Source: an uncultured virus (IMG/VR IMGVR_UViG_3300005253_000164)
Taxonomy: Duplodnaviria; Heunggongvirae; Uroviricota; Caudoviricetes
Strand: one strand, 5' to 3'
IMG/VR virus record: IMGVR_UViG_3300005253_000164
DNA length: 64,000 nucleotides
A model generated the notes under the pieces. That model was not told the DNA's origin, did no database searches, and was given only the letters and a program-made list of their open reading frames with translations. A program made the position numbers and the translations under genes. How positions within the stretch are numbered: the stretch's first letter is position 1; each line of letters opens with the position of its first letter. Of this stretch, positions 5,488 to 40,157 are shown one piece after another.

Positions 5488-5795
5488 TCTCTCTCACATT
5501 AGGATTGCAAACCACTATCCTATAAAATTCTAAATAGGTTCACCTAACTTTAACTTTTCATGGCCTATTTAGTCTCTCCAATTTAAGAAGCAAAAGACGA
5601 GATAAACAGCTAAGGAGAATGTTCTGAGGTAACATTTGATGATAGAGATTTCCAGACTCGTAAGCTACTGGAAGCAAGTCTACAATCCCTCATCTATCAC
5701 ACGACAGGTTTGAAACACCTGTTATAACCACTCAATCAACTTTGATTGTGTTAGAATGGTAAGGTTCCTATTTTTTTCATTACCTTACCATTTCT
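5488..5795 (+). ncRNA. Hairpin-rich non-coding leader/ncRNA at the head of the CTCTC array
   Basis: No ORF; stems CTAAATAGG/CCTATTTAG, GATAGA/TCTATC, TTCCAG/CTGGAA, ACAGGT/ACCTGT, CAATCAA/TTGATTG, AATGGTAAGGT/ACCTTACCATT; TATA-like TTAATATAAA at 5451-5460. Confidence 0.55.
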
Positions 5796-5865
5796 CTGAA
5801 ATGTCTTAATAAGACAGGAAAACGCTTATTCCCCCAAATGGGATAACAAGCAGGTGACAAAAAAG
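5793..5865 (+). repeat. ~70-bp structured 5' leader, copy 1 (other copies ~6358-6428 and ~8301-8374)
   Basis: CTCT-AAATG-NNN-TAA...ACAGGAAAACGCTTATTCCCCC...TGGGATAACAAGCAGGTGA-(A-rich)-ATG present three times. Confidence 0.9.
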
Positions 5866-6327
5866 ATGTTTGCAAAACGAAAAACAATCCTATTAGAAGT
5901 ATATGACCACAAAATAGCAACGGACTCAACCAACCTTGAAACCGACAAATGGACACACTATTGGAATTTTAAAGTAACAGTTGTTACATTATTCAACAAA
6001 GTGAGAGAAGTTAAAGTCGATTTAACTGAAATAGTAAAAATTCTATTAAAGAAGGAGAATGCAGAAGAGTTTTCAGAATTCTTTGATAATATGTCTCTGG
6101 TAAATCTGGCAATCAAGGAGATGCTTTTGAACAAGAAGCTACCAACTAAAGTTGAGCCAGTTGAAACATACTTCGAACATCCAATTGGAACCCACTGGCA
6201 TAGAATTACAGGAAACCTAAAATTCTTTATTAAGGATTTAGATTTCAAAGAAGAAGAACTTATAGCAATGCCTTCTATAGCATCTATAGCTTCTATAACT
6301 GATTCAGTAGCTCCAGTTGTAGTATAA
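5866..6327 (+). CDS. Hypothetical protein
   Basis: Start moved to ATG 5866; the track's GTG at 5854 is part of the GGTGA SD. Confidence 0.75.
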   Translation: MFAKRKTILLEVYDHKIATDSTNLETDKWTHYWNFKVTVVTLFNKVREVKVDLTEIVKILLKKENAEEFSEFFDNMSLVNLAIKEMLLNKKLPTKVEPVETYFEHPIGTHWHRITGNLKFFIKDLDFKEEELIAMPSIASIASITDSVAPVVV

Positions 6328-6428
6328 TTCACAACAAATGATGCCCGAATGCGAGGCACTCTAAAATGTCCTAAAAAGACAGGAAAACGCTTATTCCCCC
6401 ATGATGGGATAACAAGCAGGTGACAAAA

Positions 6429-6896
6429 ATGAACATCACAGTAACAAAAGACACTATGATTGACGCTTTATATAGCGAAACCGATATGCTTGGTCTAATC
6501 AAGCACAATACTAATAAGAACCCTAAAAATAGCAGGGCAATGAACCATTGTAAATCACATGGATACAGAACTTGTGTCCCAGAATCAAGGGTTTATGCAT
6601 CGTTATTAGTAGTAGTAATCAAAGCAGAAGTTGCATTGAAGAAAGGACTTAGAGAAGTGATTATGCCCCCAATCCACAAGGCTAAAACTCACATCAATCT
6701 AAGGAATTTCAATTTTCCAATGAAGGATAATCACTACAAAAATAGACCAAAACAATTGGGTAAACACTATCAAAGGTATGTAGCAATGCCAAACAAAGAT
6801 AGGGTGAAAAGATTCAATCAAGAACTACGATTCCTTGCTTCTCTTACAAATGAGAACATTGATGAATTTGTAGACGACATTTATATTCTTTACTAG
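6429..6896 (+). CDS. Hypothetical basic protein
   Basis: ATG after GGTGA of leader copy 2. Confidence 0.75.
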   Translation: MNITVTKDTMIDALYSETDMLGLIKHNTNKNPKNSRAMNHCKSHGYRTCVPESRVYASLLVVVIKAEVALKKGLREVIMPPIHKAKTHINLRNFNFPMKDNHYKNRPKQLGKHYQRYVAMPNKDRVKRFNQELRFLASLTNENIDEFVDDIYILY

Positions 6897-6984
6897 AATA
6901 TATTCACCAATTATTGATGCCCGAATGCGAGGCTCTCTATGGTATGAATGAATAACAAATATTCATACTGAGTTGAACAATCAC

Positions 6985-7212
6985 ATGAGTACAATCATTG
7001 ATCAAAAATTCGAAACTATTACCGTCAAATCAGACGCAGATGAAATCCAATCACTACTTGAAGAAGCAGATCTACTTATAGGTTTAAACACCTATGTTAC
7101 AGAGATCAATACTTCAACTATTGAAGAACTTGAGGCAGAAATAGCTTACTTAAGAGATACTCCCAAAAATGTATCTGAGTATGAGCCTTGGGATATGGGT
7201 GAATTAAGATAA
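6985..7212 (+). CDS. Small acidic hypothetical protein
   Basis: ORF track; first ATG at 6985. Confidence 0.6.
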   Translation: MSTIIDQKFETITVKSDADEIQSLLEEADLLIGLNTYVTEINTSTIEELEAEIAYLRDTPKNVSEYEPWDMGELR

Positions 7213-7329
7213 TTGGTAATAGTTTAAGTTCTCTCCTCATGTTGACATTAATCGATCAATTATATTATACGAAATTCCAAAAAAGAATGCAATCTGAAAT
7301 AATTGCAGTTTTAAACGGAACTGATTCAA

Positions 7330-7503
7330 ATGGAAACTACACAAATATATGATCCTATTTATATTACAAATTCTAAGTTTTGGAATTATGTAAAATGTAG
7401 GATATGTCATGCTATCCTTACAAAAGATGGAGACACAATAATCTGTTTAGATTGTGGGTTTAAACACCCCGCAATCAAACTAATTGAATTATGTAGTATC
7501 TAA
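7330..7503 (+). CDS. 57-aa Zn-ribbon microprotein (not in ORF track)
   Basis: METTQIYDP...CRIC...CLDCG...; stop immediately precedes the 15-bp repeat. Confidence 0.6.
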   Translation: METTQIYDPIYITNSKFWNYVKCRICHAILTKDGDTIICLDCGFKHPAIKLIELCSI

Positions 7504-7534
7504 AACACAATGCCCGAATGCGAGGCTCTCCCCT

Positions 7535-7927
7535 ATGGATGAAAATAAAAAATCTCCAAAACCAAAATGTGAAGCGACCATTGTTATAGACAATCATACT
7601 ATAAAATGCAGAGAAGATACTCATACAGATGACACATGGCACAAAGGTCTTTTCTACGCAAGACAACCTATAAATGATAAAATTAATATTTTTATCACTC
7701 AACAATATCATTGGAGAAAAGAAAAATCCACAAGTGATGAATATATACAAAAATCAAATGATAGGTTTAATAAACCAATGACTAAGGAATTATCGAGCAC
7801 AATATGCAATTGTGGTGATATTCTTAACACTTGCTTATTTAAAGATCCATGTTGCCACTGTGCTGATAGAGAACTTTGTCATGGATGCTTAGTACTAATG
7901 AAACAAAGGAATCGTAATAAAACTTAA
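7535..7927 (+). CDS. Cys-rich hypothetical protein
   Basis: ATG directly after CTCTCCCCT; N-terminus MDENKKSPKPK shared with 8801. Confidence 0.7.
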   Translation: MDENKKSPKPKCEATIVIDNHTIKCREDTHTDDTWHKGLFYARQPINDKINIFITQQYHWRKEKSTSDEYIQKSNDRFNKPMTKELSSTICNCGDILNTCLFKDPCCHCADRELCHGCLVLMKQRNRNKT

Positions 7928-8018
7928 ACAATTCGCACACACATAACATGCCCGAATGCGAGGCTCTCTCCTATCTATAAGGCGATTATTCGAAAAAATT
8001 ATAGAAAAGGTGAAATAA

Positions 8019-8261
8019 ATGACCAAAGAAAAAATTAGTGAAAGAGAAACAATTGCAGTTCTTCTGTATTTGATTGATGATTTGAAAAGAAAAATAATAG
8101 AAAAGGAAAAATTCCATCCTTATCAATTACCAACACTCAATTCCATTATTAAATGCACAGAAGAGAGTTATGTATTACCTTTGAAAGAAGAAGAATTTCA
8201 AAAAATTATTATTGATACAAAAAGGCATATATTATATACTCAAAAACAATTGCAGTTATAA
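8019..8261 (+). CDS. Hypothetical protein
   Basis: GGTGA SD upstream. Confidence 0.7.
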   Translation: MTKEKISERETIAVLLYLIDDLKRKIIEKEKFHPYQLPTLNSIIKCTEESYVLPLKEEEFQKIIIDTKRHILYTQKQLQL

Positions 8262-8374
8262 TTTTCATTTAATATCACACAATCAAGCCCGAATGCGAGG
8301 CTCTCTCAAATGTTTTAACAGAAACAGGAAAACGCTTATTCCCCCAAATGGGATAACAAGCAGGTGAAAAAAAA

Positions 8375-8779
8375 ATGATAAACCCAACATTAGCAATACT
8401 CATCCTACTTTGGAACACCTTACCAATGATGGTAAACATAATTTTAGTCTTAAATGGCTATGAAATTAAAAAATGGATTTTTTATTTGGCTCCAATCACT
8501 GCATTATTGTGGTGGTGGGCAATTAAAACAGGTTTAACCGAAGTAGAGTGGAATGAGATGCAAATGATCCGAAAAGCACTTAATGAATTTGATTATGTTT
8601 CTTTAGGATGTCCTTCTAACAACAAAATTTGTGATCCTCAAAAAATTTATAAAACTTATAAAAAAACAGGACAAAAGAAATTTGTTGCTTGGAAAAATAA
8701 TGCGACACTATATTTTTATATTGAAGATAATCGTGTCTGGTCAAGGATAGCAAATGCTCCTCGACTACCAGTTTACTAG
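8375..8779 (+). CDS. Membrane protein (2 N-terminal TM helices)
   Basis: Hydrophobic N-terminus; follows leader copy 3. Confidence 0.7.
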   Translation: MINPTLAILILLWNTLPMMVNIILVLNGYEIKKWIFYLAPITALLWWWAIKTGLTEVEWNEMQMIRKALNEFDYVSLGCPSNNKICDPQKIYKTYKKTGQKKFVAWKNNATLYFYIEDNRVWSRIANAPRLPVY

Positions 8780-8800
8780 TAGTTTCTAGTAATCTCTCCT

Positions 8801-9004
8801 ATGGATGAAAATAAAAATCCTCCAGAACCAAAATGGTTGAAATTCAAACTTCACCCAAAATGGCATATTAGAGAAGCAGGCTATCGTTGTTCACAATGCA
8901 ATGCATATAATGGACCCGATCACGAAGCATTTTCAGTTGATAAACATGATACTGATAGATTAGGCTATATTTGTAGAAAATGCTATGACCTCCTCTCTAA
9001 ATAA
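8801..9004 (+). CDS. Zn-finger microprotein
   Basis: CSQC...CRKC; CTCTCCT-ATG start. Confidence 0.7.
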   Translation: MDENKNPPEPKWLKFKLHPKWHIREAGYRCSQCNAYNGPDHEAFSVDKHDTDRLGYICRKCYDLLSK

Positions 9005-9009
9005 ACTCC

Positions 9010-9535
9010 TCTCTTGTATACACAGCTCAAAATCTACACATGCAGATCTTACATGATCTTGTAGAAAGTAGAGTTGATGTACTGTATACAACTAACGATT
9101 TGGCTTGGGATACTGCCATATAAATATCTTAGGAGGTTAATCCAAAGATAAATATCCCACATTCTACCTTCATATGAATAGAATAAACGAGCAGTTTCAG
9201 CAGTACAAACTGAAATTGCAAGTGATATAATGTAGTATGAAGTGCAAAATATGAACACAACAAAAATTGAGAAAAATTATGGATTATATAATTTCATATA
9301 ATTAACATATGTAATACTAATATATTTGAAATGTTTTTTCTTACGAATAAGGATCAATAGATCCTCTCTCCGCCCCAAACGCATACATTGGCATAAAACA
9401 CTCGCAATGACGTGCCGAACTATTGGAATGGCAGCATAGGGGCTGCGGAACTGTGTAATGACAGTGCTATAATTGTAGATGTCATTACATCAATATTATG
9501 TGGGATACGAGTTTATGAGTCATATCCCACATAAA
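9010..9535 (+). ncRNA. Two CTCTC-initiated, hairpin-rich non-coding units (~9010-9360 and ~9365-9535)
   Basis: Nested stems TTGTATACA/TGTATACAA, CAGCTC/GAGTTG, TCTACA/TGTAGA, AGATC/GATCT; GCAGTTTCAG/CTGAAATTGC; TGTAATGACA/TGTCATTACA; TTATGTGGGATA/TATCCCACATAA; no + strand ORF >=60 aa. Confidence 0.6.
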
Positions 9536-9731
9536 TAAATCTTATGAAGCTCTTAGAAAGACTTCGAGAAATGCGAATTAGTATGCCAGAGACAATTCCA
9601 GTAAAAGTGAGATCACTCCCATTGGATAAGATTTCTGTGGATATTAAAATGATTGGTGAAAAATCTATTCCCCAATCGGATCGCAAAAAAGAGCTTATTC
9701 GGTAATCACACTTATGCCGAAATTCTCTCCT

Positions 9732-10217
9732 GTGTTTGATGATGAAATACAAAAAATAAATGTGGGTTTGTATGATAAACACACCCATTTTGGTATGGAT
9801 GAAATATTTGAGTTTAGAGAACATCTCATATCCCTTCATCCTTATCATCAATCATTTGTTCGAACAATATTCGAAATATATCGATACGAACCATTTACAT
9901 TCATTTCAGCAAATGAATTTGGATTAACCATTGTTTATCCGAAAACAAGGTTTCGTGGTCCACTAAAAAGGATCAATGACAGATTTATTAAAATGGATAT
10001 AGCTCGAACAGATGGCATAGAATTAACTACACAGACTAAGACAGCATCACTTTATGATGTGGTTGAAGCAACAATTGCAACAATTGCATTGTCTTTTAGC
10101 TCCGCAATCCACATCAATATATCTTATGAACAAGATGTAAACGCGATGGTGAATGATGCTATGAAAATAATGGGTTACCCCCAGGATGAGTATTTTAGCA
10201 TTTTTTTCCTCTTATAG
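9732..10217 (+). CDS. Hypothetical protein
   Basis: In-frame GTG follows CTCTCCT (track start 9714). Confidence 0.65.
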   Translation: MFDDEIQKINVGLYDKHTHFGMDEIFEFREHLISLHPYHQSFVRTIFEIYRYEPFTFISANEFGLTIVYPKTRFRGPLKRINDRFIKMDIARTDGIELTTQTKTASLYDVVEATIATIALSFSSAIHINISYEQDVNAMVNDAMKIMGYPQDEYFSIFFLL

Positions 10218-10226
10218 TCTCTCCCC

Positions 10227-12362
10227 ATGTCACAATATGACAATAAGACCTTGACTGATATTAAAGAAGCAATTCTAGCATCACCAAGGTCACCACTACT
10301 TGCATTTATTGGAGTAGACGCAAAAGCGTATTTCCGATCAGTGCAATCTGTTTTTGGGCAAGTTATGCAAGAAGGTGATCTAGATCACATTGCAATGATT
10401 AGCATATCAGCTACCGAAGGCATTGAAACTAATTTCGATGCTGGAGTAGATTACTTGTCTCCAAGAGTACCAGAAGAAACCTATGCAGGAGAATTCAAAG
10501 ATCGCCTCATAGTTTTCTACTCCTACGCATCAGCGAAAGCATACGATGAGTTAAATTCAATCAATCACCTTTACGAAGGGGATATGAGTGAAGATGGATT
10601 AATTACAATAGCAAAAAGACTGAATTTGGGAAACCTTACAGGTCTTGATGCATTGAAACAGATGGCAACCAAACAGAAGAATAATATTGACATAATTCCT
10701 TTCATTAGGTTTTTTGGTTCAAGACTTCCATTTTTCTTCTTTGTCAATGTAAATTCATCACCTAGTATCTTTCCACGAAATGTTACTAATCCTCAAAGCA
10801 ACGATGCACTCATTCGTGCTTATGATTTGTTGGATGATAGTATCAATGCGTTAACGAGTGGGAAATCTTTTGGCGATGTTAAATTCAAAGAGAAATCTTC
10901 AGATGAAGAACTGATTTATGGATACTCAAACCTAGTAGTTTTTGCCCTCGATGATGAGGATATTAACGAAAGGATACTAAGGAAAGAATATGCTTATACA
11001 CATAAGTGTTTTTTCCCAGAACCAGAACAAAGAGAATGGATTATAGCAGGATTGCTGGAAGAGAAACAAGATGAATATCTTGATTCTGAACCAATGATCC
11101 AGTTTAAAATCAAACCAATCCCTAGAGAAGAGTGGAACGGTGGTGAGCAGGAATACCGACAGTTGATAACCTCAATTGGTGGGAATACTGCTGGACTAGA
11201 CTCAATTCAATTAGAACAAGCTGTTCTTAAAGGAATTGAATATCAAGTTCGAGAACAACATCTTTTGGAATTAGAAGAAGATCCTAGCGTGAAAGAGTTT
11301 GAAGTCGAAATCGACATTGAACCATTTAATAAATTTCGCGAAGAGATCCTTAATCAATATGATTTCCTTCAAATCCCAGACACGTCTCATACACTTGATG
11401 ATGTTGCAGGGCATACCCTAAACAAAGAAATAATCAGAACTTACATAATCGAAATGGTTAAACGACCAGATAGAAGAAAGTTCATGAAAAACTTCCTTGC
11501 TTTAGTAGGTGTGCCAGGCACAGGTAAAACATGGCTCGTTGGAGCAGTCGCAAATGAACTGAAAAAATATGGTTATATTTTCTTGGTGTTCTTGCTAAAT
11601 TCCTTGAAAGAAGGAATAGTTGGAGCATCAAACAAAAAAGCCAAATTAGCATTTCAAATTGCAGACTCTTGTGGCTATGCAGTCCTATTCTTTGACGAAG
11701 TTGATATGATTACTTCTGGTCGTGAATCACAAGGCGATTCAGGAGTAAGCAGCGGAATTCAACAACAGTTAATGAAATGGTCTGAAAACAAAGACAAATT
11801 CACAGGAAAACAAATAGTTGCCTCAGCAACAAATCGACCAGATTTAGTTGAGGGGGCTTTTTGGGATCGAATATCTAGAGACGGAGTACTAAACTTCGAA
11901 CCTTTGGATAAATTTGGTATCGGTGAACTTGTTGCCTTAAAACTGAATAAGTTTGAAAAGGATAGTCCAGAATTTACCTACAACAAAATCAATACTTATG
12001 AGGAACTCGGTCAGAAGATCTATGATATAAGACCAGAGTTAATGGGTAGACCATTAGTATCTATGATTGAATGGATTCGAGATACAGCCATTGTTAGAGC
12101 AGATGAAGCCAATACAACAGAACTTACTTTCTCAATAGAGTTAGTAGGAGAAGTTATGGGTGAAACTACTAGCAGAGGAATGTCCGAAGAAGTCGAGAAA
12201 ATGCGAGAAGTATGTGAATCATACGCATTTTTCAAAACAGATGCATCTTTAGAAGCATTACTTGGAACGAAATCAAGAAAAGTAAAGTCTACGAAGAAGA
12301 AATCTACCACCAAGAAGAAGAAATCTCCTACTAAGAAGATTGATTTGAAGAAGATTAAATAA
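10227..12362 (+). CDS. AAA+ ATPase, Ycf46/SpoVK-like architecture
   Basis: Walker A GVPGTGKT, Walker B FFDEVD, sensor ATNRPD; degenerate N-terminal domain; Lys-rich tail. Confidence 0.8.
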   Translation: MSQYDNKTLTDIKEAILASPRSPLLAFIGVDAKAYFRSVQSVFGQVMQEGDLDHIAMISISATEGIETNFDAGVDYLSPRVPEETYAGEFKDRLIVFYSYASAKAYDELNSINHLYEGDMSEDGLITIAKRLNLGNLTGLDALKQMATKQKNNIDIIPFIRFFGSRLPFFFFVNVNSSPSIFPRNVTNPQSNDALIRAYDLLDDSINALTSGKSFGDVKFKEKSSDEELIYGYSNLVVFALDDEDINERILRKEYAYTHKCFFPEPEQREWIIAGLLEEKQDEYLDSEPMIQFKIKPIPREEWNGGEQEYRQLITSIGGNTAGLDSIQLEQAVLKGIEYQVREQHLLELEEDPSVKEFEVEIDIEPFNKFREEILNQYDFLQIPDTSHTLDDVAGHTLNKEIIRTYIIEMVKRPDRRKFMKNFLALVGVPGTGKTWLVGAVANELKKYGYIFLVFLLNSLKEGIVGASNKKAKLAFQIADSCGYAVLFFDEVDMITSGRESQGDSGVSSGIQQQLMKWSENKDKFTGKQIVASATNRPDLVEGAFWDRISRDGVLNFEPLDKFGIGELVALKLNKFEKDSPEFTYNKINTYEELGQKIYDIRPELMGRPLVSMIEWIRDTAIVRADEANTTELTFSIELVGEVMGETTSRGMSEEVEKMREVCESYAFFKTDASLEALLGTKSRKVKSTKKKSTTKKKKSPTKKIDLKKIK

Positions 12363-12384
12363 TATAACCTTCAATTTCTCTCAT

Positions 12385-13404
12385 ATGGCTTTAGCAACAA
12401 TATTACTAACCTATAAAGAAATCTTACTATTAAGAGAAAAAATATGGGATATTTATCATAGTGATGAATACACGTCTGAATATGTCGGATTTGTAAACAA
12501 CGTAAAATACATCTTATATCTTGGAGAAGGTGGAACCACATATGGTCCACTAAATTTACTTTCAGTAAATAAATTACTCTCATTAGTAAGTCCGAGAATT
12601 AAAAGCCCAAATTGTACTTTGAAACATTCTCCCTATTACTCAACATGTATTGAGGAATATGGGCTACATTATGAACCAACTTGGGAAAATGTTTGTTCAA
12701 AATGTGAACAAGAAATCAAACGCTTCATTAACACAAACAACTAATCTCTCTTATTATGGATGAATACTACAATGAAGCCATATTAAAAATTAACACCATT
12801 CTCAACGGAGATAGTAACGATGAGAAAGGCGATTTACAAGACATATTATCATTAGTACAACAATATAAATTCAGTGTTGATACAGCTTTAAAAGAAATAT
12901 TAGAAGCTCTTAAAACAAGTGATACAGTTGTGCAAAAAATTTATAAAACCTTGTCATAATCTCTCCTATGACTATAACTACAATCATAATTTTATTTATA
13001 GTAATAATTGGTATTATTTGGGGGCTATTTGACATTATGTTGAAAAACCCTTCAAATAAATGTTGTTTAACTAACCCTTTTATGACATTACGAACAATAA
13101 AACCTTACAATCAAACAACTACAATTTATTGTAGACAATGTTATTCACAATTGGATTGTAATTTCGCATATTATTATGATTAATAATCTCTCCTATGACA
13201 ATTAACAATGTCAGAAAAGAAATAACATACTTCATATTATTAGTATTAATGTGGAGTGCTGGAACTGTTTTCGTAATTATTGGTATAGTTAATAATAATG
13301 ATACGTTGGCAGCTATAGCTTTTATTGGAACAGTTTTTGTTTTAGTAAAAGGTACGGATTTGTGGATAAGTAATTCTAAAGATCAATATTATTTTATCTA
13401 CTAA
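12385..13404 (+). CDS. Four small cassette genes (12385-12744, 12756-12959, 12968-13183, 13195-13404); two are membrane peptides
   Basis: Each preceded by CTCTC; grouped entry. Confidence 0.7.
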
Positions 13405-13412
13405 CCTCTCCT

Positions 13413-13817
13413 ATGAGTGAAAATGGAATAATCACAATTAGAACACTAGAATGCGATGTCTGTGACAGATATGATTCTATAATGCTTTCTGAAGAGGAAG
13501 TCATTACCAGATCAAAATCAACAGACATGGGCATAGGTGCATATTCAGTTGTGCATAAAGATCACACCAGAATCATCTACTTTGATAAAGATGGAACATA
13601 TCTTGGGGATACAATAGCAATGAATCCCGATGACGTGCCAGATACAATAAAAGATGGGCCTAATAAACCAACAGATGAATGGTTTGACACCCTCCCTGGT
13701 AAACAATTAGAAGACGACATCTATGGAGTAGATGAAGATTCTAAAGTGGTCGAGAAACCAAGAAAAAGAGGTAAAATAATTACTTTCTTTACTCAAAGGT
13801 TTTCAACAAAACGCTGA
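13413..13817 (+). CDS. Asgard-type Zn-binding domain protein
   Basis: ECDVC...GIGAYSVVHKDHTRIIYFDKDGTYLG resembles the CxxC...H..H..D..G domain I recognise from Loki/Heimdall proteins. Confidence 0.5.
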   Translation: MSENGIITIRTLECDVCDRYDSIMLSEEEVITRSKSTDMGIGAYSVVHKDHTRIIYFDKDGTYLGDTIAMNPDDVPDTIKDGPNKPTDEWFDTLPGKQLEDDIYGVDEDSKVVEKPRKRGKIITFFTQRFSTKR

Positions 13818-14119
13818 ATCTCTCACTATGAATGAAAATGAATTGAAAAAAACATACATAGAAAATAGGAAATTATTGCCAAAAATAAATGATGTCGATA
13901 ATAATCCTGAATACACACATTCAAGATGCTACATTTGATTCAGATCCATTAGCATTTTGCGGTGAACCTAGTTCACAAAATAAAATAATTCTTTCTGATA
14001 AATTGACTATTAGTGAATTACAGAAAAATTTTAGAAAGTATGATCCAGAATGTGTTAATAGATTAGTCCAATCATTCTTATTTAAAATGATTAATGAGAC
14101 TTAATCTCTCGGTGATATA

Positions 14120-14829: not shown

Positions 14830-14836
14830 TCTCTCT

Positions 14837-15334: not shown

Positions 15335-15342
15335 TCTCCCCA

Positions 15343-21610: not shown

Positions 21611-21614
21611 TTTT

Positions 21615-29357: not shown

Positions 29358-31778
29358 ATGATTTATTATGCTGTAATAGATAATAAACCAATATTTAGAA
29401 AAACAATTACAATATTTTCTGATAAACACACAATAAATACTTCAAAAGAAGTGAAAGAACTATCAAATTACTCAAGATTGATGACATATCTTTATTGTCA
29501 AATTGATAAAATAAAAGATAATAATCAATCCAAGTGGGTTATTATTGATAAAACAGGTGTTGTTAAAAAATATAATTCTTTAATCAGATTAGTCAATATT
29601 GAATAATATTTCTTTCTTAATACTCTCACATGCATCCAAATGAAAAAAATGGATTCAAAAAATGTATTTGTTGCCATTCATGGATCTACCCAGATAAAAT
29701 ACCAGAAATGAATGGACAACACTGTAAAGGCTGCAAAAATTGCAAATATTTAGGTATTTGTAGATTAGCAGGTTAATACTATTATTTAGAAGGAATAAAT
29801 AAAAGATTCCCAAAAGAACCTTAAATCCTCAAAATAAATCTCTCTATGGCAATGGCATTAACACCAATTGACCTAAAAATATTCGAACATATTACTATGG
29901 AACTGATGAAAGAATTGAAATTTAATTTCTACACAACATCTAAAAAAACCATTAGTGAATTTGTTCAAACCAATGTTGAGAAAATCGTTCTCTCTTATTT
30001 AGAGCGATCCAACAAAGTATTTGGAAGTATGGAGGAAAACCTTCAACCTTTCATAGATTTTATATTGAAGGACCTTCCCAACTAACTCTCCTATGACTGA
30101 TATAGAAGTAAAAGTCAATATAACAAAGAAAATCTCTTATCAAAGATTAAGTAGTATATTAGTAGGTTATTTTGAAGGAAACCCTTCTGCAAATAATACT
30201 ATCACAAAATATACTAAAGTCGAACCACTAAATTGGGAAGGGCTTAAAGAAACCTATGGATCCGATGGAAAAGTATGGTACTATTGTTACCCTTTCAATG
30301 AAGGTGGTGCAATCATTCTCCATGAACGTGAGAATTGGACTGAAAGTGGTAAGCCACCTAGAAAACTTAGATTAGACCTGACTACCATTGTAAGAGGTTT
30401 AAGAATACTAGAAGAAAAATACCCCCATCATTTAGAAGCAATTGTCGAAGGCAACGATGATTGCTGGACATCAAGTGCGTTAGTAGAATGTGCTTTGTAT
30501 GGGGACATAATCTTTGGTTAATTCTCTCCAAATATCAATGAATAACTTATTGAATACATTTGATGTAGGCTCTCTATGGCAACTTATAGCTGTCCAAAAT
30601 GCCTTTGCAACGTAGTTACTGCGAAGAAAGGCGACATTGAAACATGCAAAAAATGTTTTACAACATCATATCTGGATAAGAATAACAATTCAGTAAAAGT
30701 AGGTCACAATGATTACGCGGAAAAAATTTCCAAAAGCAATATTAGTGACAGATAACTTATTCAATATATATTATGATGTCTCTCTATGGTTGGTACTAAA
30801 ACACCCCCAAGATTTATTATTAGACTGGATCTGGAAGATACGGTCTACAAACAACTCGAATCACTTGGCTACAAGGTAAAAAAATCAAACGGAAAAGGAA
30901 AAAAAGTCTGGTTTGATAAAAAAGAATACAATCTTAAAAACATTAATACTCCAAAATTAGTTGGATTATTCGATGCTTTAACCAAGAAACACAATATAAA
31001 ATGGGATTATAATGAACATCATTACATGCCCAAATATATTGCTGAAAATCGAAGTTGACCTCTCATGCCATCTACAACTATAGATGAGTTAAAAACAGAA
31101 ATTTTCACTCTAACCGAGAGAAGATTAATTGAACGCTACAATACTCTTCGAGCAGCATATATAATGGCTGCCGACAAAAAAAATGAATATTCATTCTGGA
31201 ATAAACATTTCAGTAAGAAAGCATCATGGAAACAATTAAAAATAAAATTGAAAGAATTGAGAATTTATATTGATATTATTCTAGAAGATATGATCAGACG
31301 AAAAATGGATATAAGCATTTATTTAATGCATCCACTGTAGCTTCTCTCTTATGGCAGAATCGTCAGATACTATAAGATTAAAAGATTTATTTAGAAAATT
31401 TATTACCTATGATTTCTATCTTAATCATATTGCTGAAAGACCTCCACCAAATTATAGTGGAACTATAATTAGGAAGGCTTTAAATTATCTTGATATTAAT
31501 AAATCCTTAATTCTTACTGAAATAAAAGTGATTTTAGAAGAATCATTCTAATCTCTCCAATGGCAATTAATAACATTAAACCATTAACAGCAATCGAAAG
31601 AATACCTTATCTTGATCACGATAAATTGGTCAAACAGATTAATCAACTCAATGAGTTAAAAGATCCTATCGAAACTATTCTGGTTGAAGAAGAAGATTTA
31701 ACTGAAGCCTCCATCGAAACACTAGGTTTAATTCATGACATCTATCATGAAGTGATGGGAACGATTGCTAACTCCTAA
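29358..31778 (+). CDS. Cassette genes 29358-29606, 29846-30085, 30093-30521 (widespread phage hypothetical, ...ALYGDIIFG end), 30786-31058, 31065-31340, 31351-31551, 31560-31778, plus Zn microproteins starting at 29630 and 30576
   Basis: CTCTC starts; grouped entry. Confidence 0.7.
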
Positions 31779-31799
31779 TGAAAAATTAAATTTCTCTCA

Positions 31800-31868
31800 T
31801 TTACACTTTACACTTTACATTACATTTATTAATGGTAAAGTAAAGGTAAAAGTAAAAGTAAAGGTAAA
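31800..31868. repeat. Inverted arrays of TTTAC (x3-4) and GTAAA (x6) pentamers
   Basis: Read directly, upstream of HTH gene 31875. Confidence 0.85.
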
Positions 31869-31874
31869 GAAAAA

Positions 31875-32297
31875 ATGACATTACCAAATACTAAAGAAGA
31901 ATATGAAATACTATTCGATGAACACAAACAGAAGAAATTAGTGGCAGAAGCATTGAACATATCACGACCAACTCTTGATTCAGAAATCAAAAAAGTGGGA
32001 TTTGATTATGAAACATGGAAACAAAAACACATGAAAAATAATCAAACCACACCAGGTCAAACAAGAACTCGTTCTAGAAAAATAAAAAAATCTCTTCCAA
32101 CTATGGAAATTGCAATGGCAATGGTGAAAAAACGTCTAGAGCGAGAAATGGCTTTTCAAATCAAAGAATTTGGTTACGAGAACGTCAATCATAGAAGAAT
32201 ATATAATCGCCTCTATGGTGAGATTAAACGTGACAGACAAACAGTTGAATTTGCATTCCGTCATTTACTAGACGAATTAAAGCTAGAGGGCTACTAA
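31875..32297 (+). CDS. Fis-type HTH DNA-binding protein
   Basis: KKLVAEALNISRPTLDSEIKK. Confidence 0.7.
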   Translation: MTLPNTKEEYEILFDEHKQKKLVAEALNISRPTLDSEIKKVGFDYETWKQKHMKNNQTTPGQTRTRSRKIKKSLPTMEIAMAMVKKRLEREMAFQIKEFGYENVNHRRIYNRLYGEIKRDRQTVEFAFRHLLDELKLEGY

Positions 32298-32307
32298 TAT
32301 CTCTCCT

Positions 32308-33828
32308 ATGGGAAAAATAAACCCCAAACCTATGAAACTCGTAAGAGAATTCAAAGGGATAACAATAACTATCGAATCAGAAAATTCAGATAGTATAGAT
32401 CTGGTTAATGATATGGCCGATGACATTGGTAGTATAAGCAGACACGACCTAACAATATATTTGGGTAAATTCACTCTAAAAGGTACTGCAAGAGTTCTAT
32501 CAAACAAAGAAGCATATCCATTAATCATGGAGCAAATTCAGAAAGATAAAGATTCGCAAAGATTTAAATCCTCTGAATAGTTCTCTCATTTACTCTCAAA
32601 GGTTAGAAAAATGTTAACCAAAAAAGAAAAAGAAATAATAGACAAAGATTTTAGTTATTGCTATCATTCAGTTGATTTCGAGATCCCCAATAAAAAATTG
32701 GAAGTGGTTTCTGAAAGTAAATATATTACTGAAAAAACAGACGAACTGAATTATACATTTAGAGATCGTTTAACTTTATCTGAAAATGATCTTGGCAGTT
32801 TCAAAAACAAATTCAATGACATATTGGCTCAAATTAAGGAGTTAGTGGATCAGAGAAAAACAAATGAGACTGAAAAGGTAAAAAAACGAGATGATATTCT
32901 ATCTGTAGAATATTCTCCTTTACAAACAGAGAAAATACAAATAGAGGAAGAATATTATGAAGTTAAAAGAATATTTGATAAAGTTAGTAATGCTAAAAAT
33001 GCATTGCAAAAACGATTAAATGATATAAATGATGCAATAAAAATCTTGACAAAAAGTGAAAAAATGATAAAGGTTGAAATAGACCTGTTTGAAAATTATG
33101 GTGCTAAAGATGCAGCTATTGTTGAAAAGATAGATCATATTATTGATGATCTTGAATCAAGAGTTGATACCATTAGAGAAACTGCCATAAACGAAAAACA
33201 GAAAAAGGAAACCAAATTGGACCTGGTAATTAATACCTATGCTAAAACAATATTAGAACACAAATTCCCTAAAAGGAAAGATGGGACTTGGTGGACTAAT
33301 AGTATAAAGTATCTAGAACGCAGAGAAAATATATTTAATCATTACAAACTGGAACGATCTATTCCCAATAGATTTACTAATACTATTGGAGAAAATCGTA
33401 AATTAAAGAAAATACTCTTTGATTTCGAATATTATCGTATGGTTGGAAAATCAATGAAAATTAATAATATTCCCATTTATGTAAGTGAAGGGTCGTATAT
33501 TGGTGTAACACCAATATTAAAGCCCGATATTAAAAACCAAATGATTAAAAATTCTGTAAAATTAGATGAGGATCAATTTAATATTCTTAAAAAGAATCTG
33601 GAATATTCTATGTCTGGAACATCTGCCGATTCATTTAAAATTGATGAATGCAGGTATCCTCTGGATGGATTGACCAGCTTTGAAGAATTTGATAATGAAT
33701 TATTAAATGCGTATTTTCTTACATCAGAGAAAAAACCAAAATATTTTAAAGAAGGCACATCATTTTTACTACTTTTAGAGACTCCTTACTCATTATGGGT
33801 ACTCACACCTATATTAGTAAAGGAATAG
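32308..33828 (+). CDS. Hypothetical 32308-32580 and coiled-coil protein 32611-33828
   Basis: ORF track; heptad-rich N-terminal half in the latter. Confidence 0.75.
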
Positions 33829-33890
33829 TTCTCTCAAAATCGGCAGGTTAAATAATCATGCCGAGTATAATATATATAGGGATAACTCTC
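33826..33890 (+). promoter_or_regulatory. Copy of the internal promoter cassette
   Basis: 33826-33884 identical to 21547-21605. Confidence 0.85.
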
Positions 33891-35378
33891 ATGATAACAT
33901 TATTAGAAATTGGAATCATCATAGGGGTGGTTCTACTTTCTTATTTAATAATCAGAAAATTAACTCCTCCAATAAACTGGTATCTCGAAATGTATAAACA
34001 TCAGACATACATTGTACACACAACTGATGAAAAACTAATTGGTAAAAAAACCAAAGAAAAAATCGGTGGTAGAAATGGATTGCATATAACAACCTATTAT
34101 AAGCGAAAACCAGAATTAGTTCAACGCATGGATACATACTTTAAGAAAAATCCCGATGTAGTGCCAGTTACAGCAGAACAGCATGTAAAAACGATGAATA
34201 AAATTATGGCTGAACTTAATAAGGAGTAAATCTCTCTATGTCAAACACTGACAACGAAAAACTAAATAAATTATTTAATTTATTTATAGAAAATAAAAAA
34301 TTAATAATTTCGAATCTAAAATATGCATTAGATAGAACTGAAACAATAATGAATATACACAAGGATAATCCAGCTTCAGATCGTGATAATCCAGCTTGGG
34401 CATATCATTATGAAGAAACTATAGGATGGGATATTAATAAGGAGATGGTCCCCAAATTAGAAGATGAGATCAAACAATTAAAAGAAATTATTCCAAAAAT
34501 AGAAGAAATTAATTAATTACTCTCAATGACACTATTAACAATAATATATAGTTTCAAAATAATGGAGTGGGGCGGTATACTCTGCTACTTATTAAAAAAT
34601 CAAAACAATGAACATTTTGCTATCAAAGCAGATTTTTTGGGTAAAATACGAGTAAGAGAACCAAGAGCACCAAGGGGGCATCCATCTACAAATCTAATAG
34701 ATCTAAAAACTCTTAAAGCAGGGAACACAGTAAAAGTTTCTCTTACTTTCACTCAAATGATAGAATCCACAGTTGAATTTCTTAAAAATATAAAGTGGAT
34801 CACACCTATTATATTGTTTTAATTCTCTCATGCCTCTTACCGAAGAACAAAAGAAGTTATTTGCAAGAAAAGACTATGAAGTTTGGAAACGAGCTTCAGA
34901 TCATTCAGAAGATATTGAAATGGTCTTTGAGACAGATGATGAATTAGAAGCATACAAACAAGCAACTGTAAAGAATTACACAATGGATATAAAAGATAGG
35001 ACATCATTTTTTTACAATGTAAAAATTGTAAAAGTAGATAAACTACACCATGCGTATAAAGCCCAAGACAAATTATACCAACTCTGGGCAGAAGACGCAA
35101 AAAAGAATTCTGAATAGTTCTCTCCAATGAAAGTACCAACACTTTTACAACAACTTGCTATGGAATCTTTTAAAAATGACATACAAGAGAAATATTGGGA
35201 ATCAACAAATTACCCAGACAGCAAAAGAATAATAATTGTTGTCAAAAACACATTTTCTCTTTGTGATGATATTTTATACAGGGAACCTAGCATAGAAGTT
35301 ATTGCAATCGACACAGATGGATCAAAAGAAGGAATTGATGCATATTGTGAAGAAGCTCTCCTATGTCAAACGATATAA
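33891..35378 (+). CDS. Cassette genes 33891-34229 (N-terminal TM), 34238-34516, 34526-34822, 34830-35117, 35127-35378
   Basis: CTCTC starts; grouped entry. Confidence 0.7.
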
Positions 35379-35854
35379 CAAGTAGACTAGAAAAACTATC
35401 GAAGATTGATCAGAGTGGTTTATCCGAAGATGTGTTAGATGCTCTTGAATCCCAGAAATATTGGGCTACAGTAAAACATATCGAAAACCATGGGAATAAA
35501 GGGAAAAAACATCCTTTTAGGACCAAGACAATAAAACACTCTGAAGAAGAAAGAAATAATCTCTTAAAAGCTGCAAGACATGAAATAATCATGGGATGTT
35601 TCACATCACAAATGATTAAAGATTTTTATAGAGAGACAACTCCAAATGGATCTGACAAGGGAACAAAAAGAACCTTTGAGGAAGATTACGAGAATGGAGA
35701 TGTTTTTCTATTAGATCCAATGTTCTGTGCAATTTATAGAGTCCTTCATCCGAATCTAAATACAAAAAACCAAAATAAGTTAGAAAACAATCCATTGTTA
35801 ATAATACTACGATGGTGTTGGAAATCTAAAAAAAAGGGTTTAGTGAAATATTAA
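35363..35854 (+). CDS. Hypothetical protein, close paralogue of 21615-22115
   Basis: Direct sequence comparison. Confidence 0.85.
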   Translation: MSNDITSRLEKLSKIDQSGLSEDVLDALESQKYWATVKHIENHGNKGKKHPFRTKTIKHSEEERNNLLKAARHEIIMGCFTSQMIKDFYRETTPNGSDKGTKRTFEEDYENGDVFLLDPMFCAIYRVLHPNLNTKNQNKLENNPLLIILRWCWKSKKKGLVKY

Positions 35855-35878
35855 AGATAGTTTATTATAATCTCTCCA

Positions 35879-38800
35879 ATGTCAAACGAAGACATAAAAT
35901 TACTCTGTGAAGGATGTGGCACACATGATTATGTGCGACTCGTAAACACATTGAAAGGAAAAGAGGATAGGTGTCTGGAATGCGTATCACTCTTAGTATC
36001 CCCAATCAAATGCCAGTTATGTAATAAACTAATTACACGACTGGAAGATCTATGTTGGAATAAAGATGAAACCAAACCACAACATGTGAAATGTCCAACA
36101 TAATATCTCTCCTATGTCAATGAAATTAATAATGACAGACGACACACTAGAAACAACTGAAGAAACACCAGTTGCAGATAAAGACGATTTAATCAATACT
36201 TTACTGATTATCCTAAACGATCAAACTGGTGTTACCTACCAAATTACTGCTGATAACAAAGATGATTTAGAAGGCATTGCTTCTGAATTTCACTTGGTAT
36301 CAACATAACTTCTCTCCCATGTCACAAAAAGACATATTATCAAAAATTGATAACAAATTACAAGAATGTACATCTAAAAGCGAATTTTATTCGCTTTATG
36401 AACAGGTGAAGACATTACTCACCACTCATGAAATAAAATACAATGAGTATGAGTATGGTCGCAATGGAGAACTCATAGTAGATAATAATATTTTCTATAA
36501 ATGGATCTTAGATCAAGAGGAAATTCCCTTTCCTGATGTATATGATGATATTATGGTTGAACAAATCAATTCATTACGTTCTATTAGTTAATTTCAATAC
36601 ACATGTTGTCTTAAATCAAGACACTCCAAAATTATTTTGGAATAATGTGAAACAATCTCTCCGATGTCACAAACGACATTACACCCCAAACATCCGATAT
36701 GTTACAAACCCAATTGTGATGGAATCAAACCTCACATTCATTACGGTGAATATTCAGATCTATACCAAAAGACAAAAGATTTTGATAATAATTATCAAAA
36801 AGATAGAAAATTAGGAATCGAAATCAGAAAGAAAGCTAATGATCTGGGAATAGAAGGCGACACAATTGATGAAATTAGAATGAATGTGGAACGGAAAATT
36901 AATAATTGGGGTAACTAATCTCTCCTATGGAATGTAAACACGTTCTAAAACTAGAACTAGGTATTATAGAGCAGAATATTCTAAGAGCTATTCTTGGAAA
37001 TATTTCAGCAAAAAAAATAGAAGAAATGATAAATGATGCAAATAAAAAAAATCCTCGTTTAAATTTACCTCTTGATGAAACACATGAACTTATTGAAAGT
37101 CTTTTTGCTGTATTTACACCTGCATATAATATGTTAGATGAACAAAAAGATTAATAATCTCTCCTATGGCAACAGAGCCAGAATTAGAAAATGAACCTAT
37201 ATCTATTGGAAATAAGAGAATAGAGGCAAAATTTAAATTTGAAAAAGGTGTAGAGATTACTCCCCACAACTTGAAAAAATATAATTCGCCCAAAAGAGTT
37301 CTCGCCAGATATGATAGATGGATGGGTGAAAACTCATACATCTGTTTTATCCATGCTACCGAAGAAGAATTAGATAAACTATTTGCAGAACTTGATCCCA
37401 TAAACGGTCAAAGAATGAAGAAAGAGAAAATAAAATTATCTAATTGCAAAGCAGGGATTACAGAAGAAGGCTTCATGCTCTATAATATACACAATACATT
37501 TTATCCAAAAAGTGTTGATAAATACATAAAAAGATGGGAAGTTTTAATCTACTATATGCCAGAGATAAAAAACTATCCGATCTGGATAAAATTCAAGAAA
37601 AATTGGTTTTTCGGCATGACACCCATCATAATGAAAGAAGACATTGAAAATCTCAGTTTCCCCTAATTTCTCTCCTATGAGTACAGAAGTATTACAAACT
37701 GACGACTTAACAAATTTAGAATTTGAATCATATATTGAAGAAAAAGACTATGGAATATTTTTTTCAAAAGATCAATATCGTTTAGAAGGAAATGTAGATC
37801 CGATTGAAAAAGGAAATTTTTACATTAGCTTTAGTGAGAATTGTGATGAAACTCACTGGATGGTTACTGCAAGATACATTATTGATAAATCTCATTGGTC
37901 AAAAGATGAAATTGATTCTGTAATGGAGTTAGGAGGAATCGAATATAATCAGATAAATCCTGAAGATTTATGTGTAGAATACGATTCTAAATGTATAATA
38001 AATCTATATGAAATGTGGTTAAGTAGCTACACACCAGATAGATTTGAAAGAAGTAAATCATTTGAAGAAATGGTTCAAATTATTACTGAAGCAATAAAAA
38101 CATATTGTCAGTAATCTCTCCTATGGTTTTCACAGGAATATCCAAAGAAGCAGAAGACATTCTGGCTGACAATCCAGGGTCTAGAAATTCAAATGCAAAA
38201 TTAATATTAGCGTTTTTAAATTCTAGAGGCTTAGAAGTTGTTCAATCTGAAGGCACAACAGGTGTTAGTATATTAAAGACACTTCGATCAGTTGTATCGA
38301 TTGTCAGATCTGCACGTAAGATCCAGAATGATTTCGGTTTATACCCCTCTACTGATAAAATCAAAAAACTTCGAGAAGAGAAAGCAGAAGAGGTTTCCGA
38401 TTGGGCAGTAGAAGATAAAAAAGATGATGAAGGAGTGTATCCTTAATCTCTCTCATGAACACAAAAATTCATATTAACCGAGAAACAGGTTTAACCTCGA
38501 TGACTGCAATTCGATACTTCTTTTCAATTCAGTCTGCTTATGCAGATTTTTATAGAGAAAGAAAGGAAATAAGTATGCAGAATTCAGCAGAGGCATTTTT
38601 AGAACAAGCACATAAAAGTTATGCTGATCTAAAAGAGAAACTTAAATTAAAACAAGAACCACCTATATTAGATGTAAAGCTTTACAATTCAATGACTAAA
38701 ATTCTAAACTTATAGGTAATTCTCTCACATGGATATTGTTTACGAATATCTATATGAAGCGGATGATGATTATAACCATTATAACTACCAACAATACACT

Positions 38801-40083
38801 GCACCCACACTAAGACTTAGGACTATTGCAGCAATAGAGCTGACACAAATAGCTATTGAAATTCTCGATGAGCTAAAAATTAGTCAATTAGGTGATGAAG
38901 AACTAGAAGATGACCACAGAAAGCAACTTCTGGAGGAATATTCACAAGAAGAATTTGAAGAATGGGTTGAAGAACATATTTATTGGCAAGAACGTGAAGA
39001 ACAAAAGAGAAAATACCTTGAAGTATTACGATTAACCCCCTCAATTTTTCATGCCGCAGTTAAAGAAGAGATATTCACTTAACCTCTCTAATGACAGTAA
39101 AAGTTTACCTCATTACATACAGAAAAATATTCCCACCCATTACAGAAATATTTTCAGTAGATGACCAACTCTACGAAAATAAAGAATTAGCAAAGCTTGA
39201 AGCAGAAGCTAAAATGGGAAAGGATGTAAATCTAATTGAATATGCTATTGCGGAATTAAAACTCCCAGATACAGCAACATTCAAAGGAATAACTGAACAT
39301 TAATACACACAATTCAGTCTCTCGTTATGTCAACAAAGATGTACAAAGTAACAAGCTACTTAATCGAGGATGTTGAGGCCATTGAGTATTTCTTCAATTT
39401 TGAAGATGCTCATAATATAATCCTAAAACTTCTCGCTAAGGTAAAATCGAAATATGGCGGATATATTGAAATCAGATCAGAAACAGGTCCAAAAAATAAA
39501 ACTCAATATATATTTCATCCAAAAGAATCAATTTCTTGGTCTATACGACAATTGATCGGATTTGACATAGAAATAGAATTCATTGAACAAACCGCACCAT
39601 TCGATAAACTAGATGAAGAATTACGCAACAAATTCAAATTTAGGTAGTTCTCTCTTATGGCGATAAAACGCAAAAAATGCAAAAAATGCAAAAAATGCAA
39701 AAAGAAATTTATATTCTCAAAAACATTAAAATTTCATAAAAGCATGAATGATTGCAAAAAATCTCTCTATGGTAACTAAAATTTACCGAGTTAGTGTTCA
39801 ACACCAAAGTAGATTAAACATCGCTGACACCGATTTACATACTTTTGAAGAACATTTCACAAATTGGGAGAAGGCTTTTGCTGAAACAATGAGTCTTCTT
39901 GACAAATTCAGTACTGCATATCATGGACCTATTCAAATTCATGAGAACCGTTCTGAAGCTGAAACAGTATTCACATACACAGCAGAAGAAGAAATAGAAT
40001 ATTCTATTAAAAAACAAGTAGTTGTAACAATAAAACAACTGCTTTTAGATACTCCAGATTCATTTGATGGAATTAGAATATAA
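35879..40083 (+). CDS. Cassette genes starting at 35879, 36114, 36319, 36664, 36927, 37166, 37677, 38123, 38455, 38729, 39091, 39327, 39657, 39769
   Basis: Every start sits 0-4 nt after CTCTC; grouped entry. Confidence 0.75.
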
Positions 40084-40157
40084 TTTTCTAGTTGGAATGA
40101 ATATTTCTCTCATCAGATCTAAGATTTAATAAATGATTTTGTTTACAAATAATTTAG

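Follow-up and report, generated by a model that had tools for sequence, protein, structure and literature searches.

Results

A pyrimidine box at the gene starts of a 35-kb array

The DNA described here is a stretch of 64,000 nucleotides (nt), hereafter the window, of the uncultured virus record IMGVR_UViG_3300005253_000164 (IMG/VR), and its source is a large unclassified mobile element or virus of marine sediment, probably with an archaeal host. The window has a G+C content of 30-37%, carries almost all of its long open reading frames (ORFs) on the + strand, and agrees letter for letter with a section of the metagenome contig L044 (145,465 nt), 81 kb of which lie beyond it; the protein-family negatives given below cover the window only. 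Few of its proteins match any family (119 ORFs against Pfam, with subsets of 49 against PHROGs and 59 against NCBIfam). About 35 kb of the window are taken up by an array of small genes, called mechanically at a minimum of 35 amino acids (aa), and most of these genes begin directly behind a short box with the core CTCTC. The features of the window are collected in Table 1.

Table 1. Positions of the array, its junctions and the features with which they are compared (window coordinates)
Feature	Position	Strand	Remark
Array of small co-directional genes (about 84), hardly any with a known family	5488..40112	+	95 distinct CTCTC sites
Span of CTCTC-N0-5-ATG matches	6933..39771	+	81 of 83 matches on the + strand
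Type junction	12957..12970	+	stop TAA, T, CTCTC, CT, ATG
Box retained inside upstream ORF	35356..35365	+	16-nt gene overlap; gene start 35363
Box retained inside upstream ORF	39763	+	11-nt gene overlap; gene start 39769
Junction of 16 nt	32295..32310	+	identical at 36101-36116; contig of run X4 joins 36100 to 32295 through it
Orphan box, right edge of array	40107..40111	+	in run X4 it is followed by the start of gene 39657
Structured non-coding stretch behind the first D2 copy	5185..5860	+	fold z -3.54; orphan boxes 5489/5491, 5574
Structured non-coding stretch	8990..9545	+	fold z -6.10; orphan boxes 8993, 9009, 9364/9366
Conserved leader, three copies	5775-5872, 6330-6435, 8274-8380	+	box, mini-ORF, hairpin-like stretch, GGTGA Shine-Dalgarno site, A-run, ATG
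Repeat D3 (about 20 nt), five copies	6323..8307	+	each 20-35 nt behind a gene end and running into the box; first copy with a variant box
D2 promoter-like cassette, left edge of array	5130..5188	+	diverged copy (66%)
D2 promoter-like cassette	16346..16404	+	followed by box and ATG
D2 promoter-like cassette	21547..21605	+	CTCTC on both sides (21552, 21606)
D2 promoter-like cassette	22680..22738	+	boxes 22666, 22741
D2 promoter-like cassette	33826..33884	+	100% identical to 21547-21605; boxes 33831, 33886
Terminator-like T7 run behind the last array genes	40797..40810	+	presumed end of unit
Repeated promoters (D5/D8) outside the array, similar to B recognition element (BRE)/TATA	47088..49071	+	about 23 nt ahead of ATGs; in contrast to the array, no CTCTC box
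TnpB, IS605-type, 395 aa	792-1979	-	closest relatives found (about 51%, many copies per genome) in Heimdallarchaeota metagenome-assembled genomes (MAGs)

CTCTC occurs 120 times on the + strand of the window, 103 times in the array and 17 times outside it, and its reverse complement GAGAG 37 times, with 9 copies in the array and 28 outside. When overlapping copies are merged, the array holds 95 distinct sites: 67 lie 0-5 nt ahead of an ATG-led ORF of at least 35 aa, 7 ahead of ORFs of 2-27 codons, 6 within called coding sequences (CDS), and 15 are intergenic with no ATG behind them. The pattern CTCTC-N0-5-ATG was matched 83 times on both strands taken together, compared with 12.07±3.62 times in dinucleotide-preserving shuffles, and none of 100 shuffles reached 83. 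The longer word TCTCTCC is found 30 times in the array (2.5±1.5 expected from a second-order Markov model) and twice outside it (1.0 expected). At the level of genes, 64 of the 84 called in the array are led by the motif, against none of the 35 called outside (Fisher 3e-16), and some of the 20 array genes without a box use a Shine-Dalgarno (SD) site.

A preliminary description of this DNA, made from the letters of the sequence, had reported CTCTC at gene starts throughout the array and not at those outside it; the counts bear this out and show the box to be strand-specific. It had also spoken of about 90 units, nearly all of them led by CTCTC; the box-led majority stands, but the number of genes is lower and almost a quarter of them have no box. 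The boxes do extend over the array as delimited there, but those linked to an ATG are confined to the narrower span in Table 1.

A position matrix of the 67 motif-led starts holds information at -8 to -1 (TCTCTCCT) and at the ATG, weakly at +4 (C), and nowhere else. The distance between box and ATG is most often 2 nt (35 ORFs), followed by 1 nt (12), 3 nt (9), 0 nt (7), 4 nt (3) and 5 nt (1). The matrix is all pyrimidine, the opposite of the GGTGA site as first noted, and the box is thus unable to act as an SD site. Outside the array, genes have SD sites of the GGTGA/GGAGG type or a BRE/TATA-like promoter about 23 nt ahead of the ATG.

In the common layout of a junction, the stop codon and the box are 0-6 nt apart and the ATG follows after a further 0-5 nt; gaps of 6-13 nt between genes are usual where the motif leads. 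At longer gaps after the previous stop (21-106 nt; for example at 12385, 16057, 22672, 28284, 29846 and 36664) the box remains next to the ATG, and where genes overlap it lies in the upstream ORF, which ties it to the gene start. Some junctions are identical over 14-16 nt, and the neighbouring junctions 30524 and 30755 share longer stretches. As only three pairs of array proteins are alike (BLASTP, E 1e-3), the shared junction is not explained by recent duplication.

Within array ORFs, CTCTC is not avoided (11 copies against 9.2±3.0 on codon shuffling). GAGAG is found 8 times in array CDS, where 19.3±4.6 copies are expected on codon shuffling (z about -2.5), and 24 times outside (24.9 expected). 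This deficit fits either CUCUC being kept unpaired in RNA or the box being avoided on the opposite DNA strand. A bias in the second codon (NCN in 35 of 67 array genes and in 9 of 27 late genes) was considered as a part of the signal and set aside as too weak.

Orphan boxes and non-coding units

The 15 intergenic orphan boxes lie in about 3 kb of non-coding DNA, where about one would be expected by chance, so that the box is not restricted to translated starts. Among those that follow a stop, 21552 and 33831 precede the two identical promoter-like cassettes, 14106 and 32583 precede SD-led genes, and others are in the two structured stretches. The preliminary description had already placed the mark at non-coding hairpin units, at both ends of a promoter cassette and ahead of two-codon mini-ORFs, and all three placements were recovered: boxes 5489/5491, 5574, 9009 and 9364/9366 are in structured non-coding stretches, 21552/21606 and 33831/33886 enclose promoter-like cassettes, and two-codon mini-ORFs lie behind boxes 6933 and 8301. 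The two structured stretches have much better predicted folds than shuffled sequence (z in Table 1), and neither matched an Rfam family; they may be structured RNAs encoded by the element.

In the conserved leader, the mini-ORF consists of two codons (ATG-NNN-TAA), and across the three copies its middle codon varies (TCT, TCC or TTT) with the ATG and TAA fixed. Judged from this arrangement, the leader looks like a translational control element. The keeping of a mini-ORF behind the box and ahead of an SD-led gene is a hint that ribosomes start at box-led AUGs.

Gene content of a related array

A related array is carried by 16,068 nt of a 68,043-nt contig from a different assembly (L043), in which 39 of 43 genes are led by the motif. 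Twenty of these genes have a homologue in the window with at least 80% identity, 12 have one below 80% and 11 have none, and 10 of these 11 are nevertheless motif-led. Gene order differs between the two arrays by insertions, deletions, duplications and moves. The preliminary description had proposed comparing cassette order in related contigs. When this was done with nucleotide homology blocks, 26 of the 35 block ends in L043 lay no more than 12 nt from a box, compared with 3.3 expected and a maximum of 10 in 2000 random draws; as all junctions share the box, a block end 'in' the box means only somewhere within the junction. At the 12 junctions shared with this contig the box has changed at 0 of 60 positions and the flanks at 24 of 420, and the unchanged box can be taken as a weak sign of constraint.

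Two of the differences between L043 and the window recur in contigs of a metagenome run (X4) that belongs to another study than the likely source runs, namely a 2.2-kb skip from 22793 to 25030 and an insertion of about 490 nt at the 25343/25346 junction. In addition, the X4 contigs join 36100 to 32295 through the 16 nt that these two junctions have in common, carry genes 23125 and 24047 between 37677-38114 and 38123-38446, and have lost 39657-40083 from stop to stop. The reads of this run were compared at 80% likeness, where foreign joints can arise; the joints relied on therefore had sides of at least 52 letters or were confirmed by L043, and those with a side below 30 letters were ignored as possible paralogues or repeats. 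L043 and X4 are not independent, because both probably represent the same relative. Moreover, not every breakpoint is clean: on the 22793 side the skip begins 46 nt inside a gene and leaves a stump, which fits the short box-led ORFs of the window being remnants.

Two further repeats were observed. A cassette of 516 nt is duplicated with 91% identity (21630-22145 and 35369-35884); its right end meets the next box exactly, and the copies diverge beyond. Contigs of runs X1 and X2 contain joints that go back by 38-39 nt in a short tract of repeats at 31837-31875, whose copy number may therefore vary.

Promoter-like sequences

Judged by their sequence, the five copies of the D2 cassette suggest that the array has few long transcription units. 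Elsewhere, each of five adjacent genes for small multi-pass membrane proteins (47140-49034) has one BRE/TATA-like promoter, and further repeated promoters of this kind, about 23 nt ahead of ATGs, are found at 56609-56999 and 2173-2228. Such a distance implies that the late genes are probably expressed as leaderless mRNAs. The promoter copies at 2173 and 56944 are 93% alike, a link between the left end of the window and the same element.

For motif-led genes no general TATA signal was seen at -26. A/T-rich octamers are about twice as common at -30 to -22 as further upstream of these genes. When 105 contexts of the window and L043 were taken together, the words of TATAT type that were enriched came mostly from the D2 cassettes (as read from k-mers with the D2 copies included), and there is a weak A/T rise at -27 to -24, with 86% and 82% A/T at -27 and -25 compared with about 70%. 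Avoidance of oligo-T runs was tried as a sign of long transcripts and rejected, as 48 runs of T5 or longer were found against about 46 expected.

Occurrence of the box elsewhere and pairing with rRNA

The 14-nt type junction gave 18 matches in 17 of 400 Asgard genomes, about as many as its reversed control. In five Asgard genomes the 10-mer pattern CTCTCNNATG occurred at 0.6 to 1.6 times the control, or about 0.02-0.03 matches per kb; in the 34.6 kb of the array, this spacing is found at 35 sites. The box is not used by the five Asgard genomes examined. In IMG/VR, the 14-mer junction was found as a single match in at least 118 stretches, and no examined locus came near the box density of L043 or L044.

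Only one 16S rRNA tail was read whole, that of an Asgard genome (G304), which is GGATCACCTCCT and is not the host's own rRNA. From its composition alone, an all-pyrimidine box cannot pair with the anti-SD. Pairing with another part of 16S rRNA was also considered, as GGAGAG is present in two Asgard 16S rRNAs upstream of the GGTGAAAT stretch; this lies in what we take to be the paired helix-22 region, and the idea found no support. As a separate observation, the 16S rRNA of a Heimdall-type genome (L164, genome G001) carries additional sequence near its 3' end that separates the conserved CCTGCGG from the GGATC tail and may be an insertion or an intron.

Discussion

A proposed role of the box as a start signal on polycistronic RNA

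The explanation that we favour, tentatively and with slightly less than even confidence, is that the box is an SD-independent signal for starting or restarting translation on polycistronic RNA, and that its repetition provides microhomology for shuffling. The array would most likely be transcribed as a few long polycistronic RNAs from the approximately five promoter-like cassettes, and on these RNAs the box would let ribosomes start, or restart after a stop 6-13 nt upstream, at the AUG 0-5 nt behind it. The 8-16 nt common to nearly all junctions could offer microhomology, and whole genes could then be gained, lost or moved while keeping their expression signal, shuffling being the outcome of microhomology and selection for intact genes.

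A translational start or restart fits best because the box is locked to the ATG, serves one class of genes, most of which have no promoter, and is retained at unrelated and newly arrived genes. Its persistence points to selection rather than descent, since few array proteins are alike, the novel genes of L043 almost all have a box and the box is unchanged at shared junctions. The under-representation of GAGAG in array CDS fits a box that needs to stay unpaired. Among the models in the preliminary description was a viral initiator element or termination-reinitiation signal; its translational half agrees with the locking of the box 0-5 nt before the ATG, but a host-type initiator is unlikely given the lack of a general TATA signal at -26. 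The exit-channel protein eS26 of Saccharolobus (S.) solfataricus is incompatible with an SD duplex and favours leaderless mRNA, and eS26 is common to TACK (Thaumarchaeota, Aigarchaeota, Crenarchaeota and Korarchaeota) and Asgard archaea (PMC11698992). A pyrimidine leader that is unable to form an SD duplex could suit such an eS26-type state of the ribosome.

Several points weigh against a translational signal. The step affected, be it transcription, processing or translation, is something that we infer, and scans against Pfam, PHROGs and NCBIfam gave no candidate for a box-reading protein or RNA in the window. An accessible complement of the box was not found in two Asgard 16S rRNAs. The predicted probability of being unpaired is ordinary at -8 to -1 (0.53, compared with 0.46 at random sites and 0.57 at late genes), and the GAGAG deficit is equally consistent with avoidance of the box on the opposite DNA strand. 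A pure start signal leaves the 15 orphan boxes unexplained unless they are remnants, which has been shown for one only, at 40107. Finally, the putative link to Asgard archaea draws on a TnpB of about 51% identity and on archaeal-type promoters.

Alternative explanations

The box could instead be an RNA processing mark, the first model of the preliminary description, with an endoribonuclease cutting the polycistron at or behind CUCUC into leaderless or nearly leaderless mRNAs and structured non-coding RNAs, although we consider this unlikely. In bacteria, MazF-type nucleases cut short pyrimidine motifs, and cuts upstream of the AUG yield leaderless mRNA; a box 0-5 nt before the AUG is in the right place for this, it also stands ahead of structured non-coding units and promoter-like cassettes, where a translation signal is useless, and the element encodes two tRNA-intron-endonuclease-like proteins (49808-51656). 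However, CTCTC is not avoided in array ORFs, so the pentamer alone cannot be the site, and the position matrix has no conserved flank or pairing for a bulge-helix-bulge or hairpin site. The bulge-helix-bulge site of the archaeal splicing endonuclease has two 3-nt bulges around a 4-bp helix, and a common structure of this kind at the boxes is unlikely given the matrix, though no dedicated scan was made for it. In addition, the EndA-like genes are in an SD-led late block outside the array, and cut RNAs would lack the 5'-triphosphate that aids leaderless mRNA binding in S. solfataricus (PMC11698992). Transcription could also begin at each box, a polymerase or factor of the element producing one short-leader mRNA per gene, which is less likely still than cleavage. 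Class-specific motifs at the gene starts of large viruses are usually promoters, and promoter motifs at starts are known from the poxvirus late TAAATG, the phiKZ late motif and the 9-nt yeast mitochondrial promoter. The weak A/T rise at -27 to -24 would agree with this, as would avoidance of the complement on the sense strand if antisense starts were harmful; but the window, which leaves out 81 kb of the 145-kb contig, gave no recognisable protein like an RNA polymerase, there is no general BRE/TATA for the host polymerase, and five separate promoter-like cassettes would be superfluous if each gene had its own start. Cluster A mycobacteriophages have stoperators, repressor-bound sites that block transcription, and the numerous asymmetric boxes, intergenic, oriented alike and limited to one block, could likewise bind a repressor that stops transcription through the array. 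This is very improbable, the least probable of all the explanations considered, as a pyrimidine core of 5-8 nt is very short for a specific DNA-binding protein, a roadblock needs no fixed distance to the ATG, and the sole candidate regulator is a weak winged-helix match at 4681-5121. Stoperators of Cluster A are named in a report on mycobacteriophages (PMC3203893).

At the DNA level, the box could be the crossover site of a dedicated integron-like system that inserts and excises single-gene cassettes, as the preliminary description had proposed among its models. In a weak form this idea stands, as gains, losses and moves between the window and L043 or X4 break at the box; the new genes of L043 come with a box, boxes flank the promoter-like cassettes, and under-representation of the complement would be expected if inverted sites were harmful. 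The likeness to an integron does not hold, as no integrase, resolvase or HUH enzyme was found in the scans of the window, the only transposase-type gene is TnpB, outside the array, and the junctions of 6-13 nt have no attC-like inverted repeats. Furthermore, some breakpoints are unclean, such as the 22793 side of the 2.2-kb difference, a crossover site needs neither a fixed 0-5 nt to the ATG nor retention in overlapping ORFs, and CTCTC not being avoided in array ORFs speaks against the bare pentamer as a recombination hazard. Gene borders are also where selection would leave the survivors of random recombination, and we rate a dedicated crossover system as doubtful, on a par with transcription from each box. 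Slightly less probable than either is that the box has no function of its own, the junction having been copied along with cassettes by gene conversion or common descent and its spacing being a side effect of compaction. Junctions identical over 14-16 nt, and the longer stretches shared by 30524 and 30755, would be explained in this way, but the box heads more than 60 genes unrelated at the protein level, is kept inside overlapping ORFs, is unchanged at junctions whose flanks differ, and stands before 10 of the 11 novel genes of L043.

An extension of the translational start signal would make CUCUC a two-in-one joint, in which SD-independent initiation or reinitiation, read by the eukaryote-like exit channel of an Asgard/TACK ribosome in the eS26 state or by a factor of the element, is combined with a DNA crossover point through which single genes could be captured and relocated without ceasing to be expressed. 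This appears rather unlikely, a little less so than RNA cleavage; if true, an archaeal virus would contain an integrase-free, self-expressing gene-cassette array. In a sharper variant, an endoribonuclease of the CUCC type would cut both the boxes, giving leaderless viral mRNAs, and the anti-SD of the host.

Comparison with known systems

Of the known systems, the start-associated sequence (SAS) of Cluster K mycobacteriophages comes closest. The SAS is a short asymmetric repeat in one orientation near the start codon, mostly ATG (3-7 bp away, compared with 0-5 nt for the box), restricted to the non-structural half of the genome, found with varied gene families and absent or rare in host genomes; its function is described there as unproven, with translation initiation proposed by the authors (PMC3203893). 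The array resembles it in the single orientation near starts (81 of 83 matches on the + strand) and in confinement to one part of the genome (64 of 84 genes against 0 of 35), with frequencies in Asgard genomes near the control. The source gives the SAS as 13 bp with an AGGAG SD core, at about 93 sites over six phages and at a minority of genes (PMC3203893). The box differs in being 5-8 nt and all pyrimidine, without the AGGAG core or anti-SD pairing, at most genes of an array in an archaeal-type element.

For shuffling at regulatory repeats, the analogue is the promoter-early stem-loop (PeSL) cassette of T4-type phages. PeSLs are conserved regulatory repeats between small ORFans in variable regions, they bound insertions, deletions and replacements and are proposed to mediate modular shuffling between close relatives, and each is a composite of promoter and terminator of tens of nt (PMC2839356, PMC4122927). 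Unlike these, most junctions of the array are 6-13 nt without a promoter or hairpin, and there are five promoter-like cassettes in 35 kb. Unrelated small genes sharing one upstream sequence are also found in archaeal viruses, where they are thought to be early or anti-defence genes and the shared sequence is a strong BRE/TATA promoter with its flanks before single genes (PMC11065993). In contrast, the box has 8 nt, has no BRE/TATA and lies between tightly packed cistrons; motif-led genes show no general BRE/TATA of the kind that an archaeal core promoter has about 26 nt ahead of the start site, and the late genes do show BRE/TATA.

With integrons the array shares many co-directional, mostly promoterless, unrelated small genes, whose content varies among relatives with breaks at a repeated junction. 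Integrons have an IntI-type tyrosine recombinase next to the array, and each of their cassettes ends in attC, whose imperfect inverted repeat spans about 55-140 bp; among the window ORFs and junctions, no integrase, attI or structured attC was found, and the junction is locked to the start codon. Like an SD site, the box precedes the start codons of internal cistrons. An SD site is usually about 5-10 nt from the start codon; the box is 0-5 nt away, is of opposite composition and has no complementarity to the 16S 3' tail of G304, and other genes of the element use true SD sites (GGTGA/GGAGG).

A pyrimidine-only, non-SD start box in archaea or their viruses looks new, as no description of one was found in the literature searched; the preliminary description had likewise named no archaeal system of this kind, although phage analogues exist. 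SD-independent starts at internal cistrons are an open question in archaea, foremost in TACK and Asgard lineages with eukaryote-type exit-channel proteins, and in the array more than 60 unrelated genes with one and the same 8-nt non-SD leader, beside SD-led and leaderless genes of the element, are natural test cases. The array is also an example of genes being shuffled singly at a minimal junction, with no recombinase recognised in the window. The fast-turning ORFan genes of this large unclassified archaeal element, which may be early or anti-defence genes, could be searched for with the box as a simple handle.

The element and its probable host

DNA of the window is present in four marine-sediment metagenome runs from two studies, none of which is recorded as RNA. 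The left end encodes a PrsW-like protease and TnpB; other family matches are two AAA ATPases (one CdvC/Vps4-like), a GP88-family protein, two PAPS-reductase-like proteins that are mutually too dissimilar to align, and one DUF7831 protein. With the three databases, the window gave no recognisable tailed-phage structural gene, integrase or polymerase, and searches of the window for tRNAs and Rfam families gave none. The closest copies of TnpB found, at about 51% identity, are in Heimdallarchaeota MAGs, and those of Bathyarchaeia come next. An archaeal host is likely because of this kinship and the archaeal EndA type of the endonuclease, together with the BRE/TATA-like promoters or GGTGA/GGAGG sites outside the array.

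A 493-aa array protein has a single homologue among 5.8 billion proteins, with 97% identity, and an Atlas comparison of the CdvC-like ATPase gave general AAA relatives only. The 711-aa ATPase had no relative in IMG/VR or in genome contigs, two repeat patterns of the window searched in IMG/VR had none there, the 1278-aa protein matched in 0 of 151 Asgard genomes searched, and the 699-, 1278- and 532-aa proteins had no sequence match in the PDB.

The SD-led late operon at 49808-55948 begins with the two tRNA-intron-endonuclease-like proteins in tandem (303 and 316 aa; EndA catalytic domain, E 3.7e-15 and 1e-6), a pair that is unusual for a mobile element. Behind them lie two paralogues, 396 and 532 aa long and 53% identical over 111 aa, with a weak DncV_C match, and then the CdvC/Vps4-like AAA ATPase. 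Four other proteins (2262-4612 and 57027-57575) have very basic, similar-looking N-termini and may be DNA-binding or particle core proteins. A 28-nt sequence stands in three tandem copies at 46445-46531.

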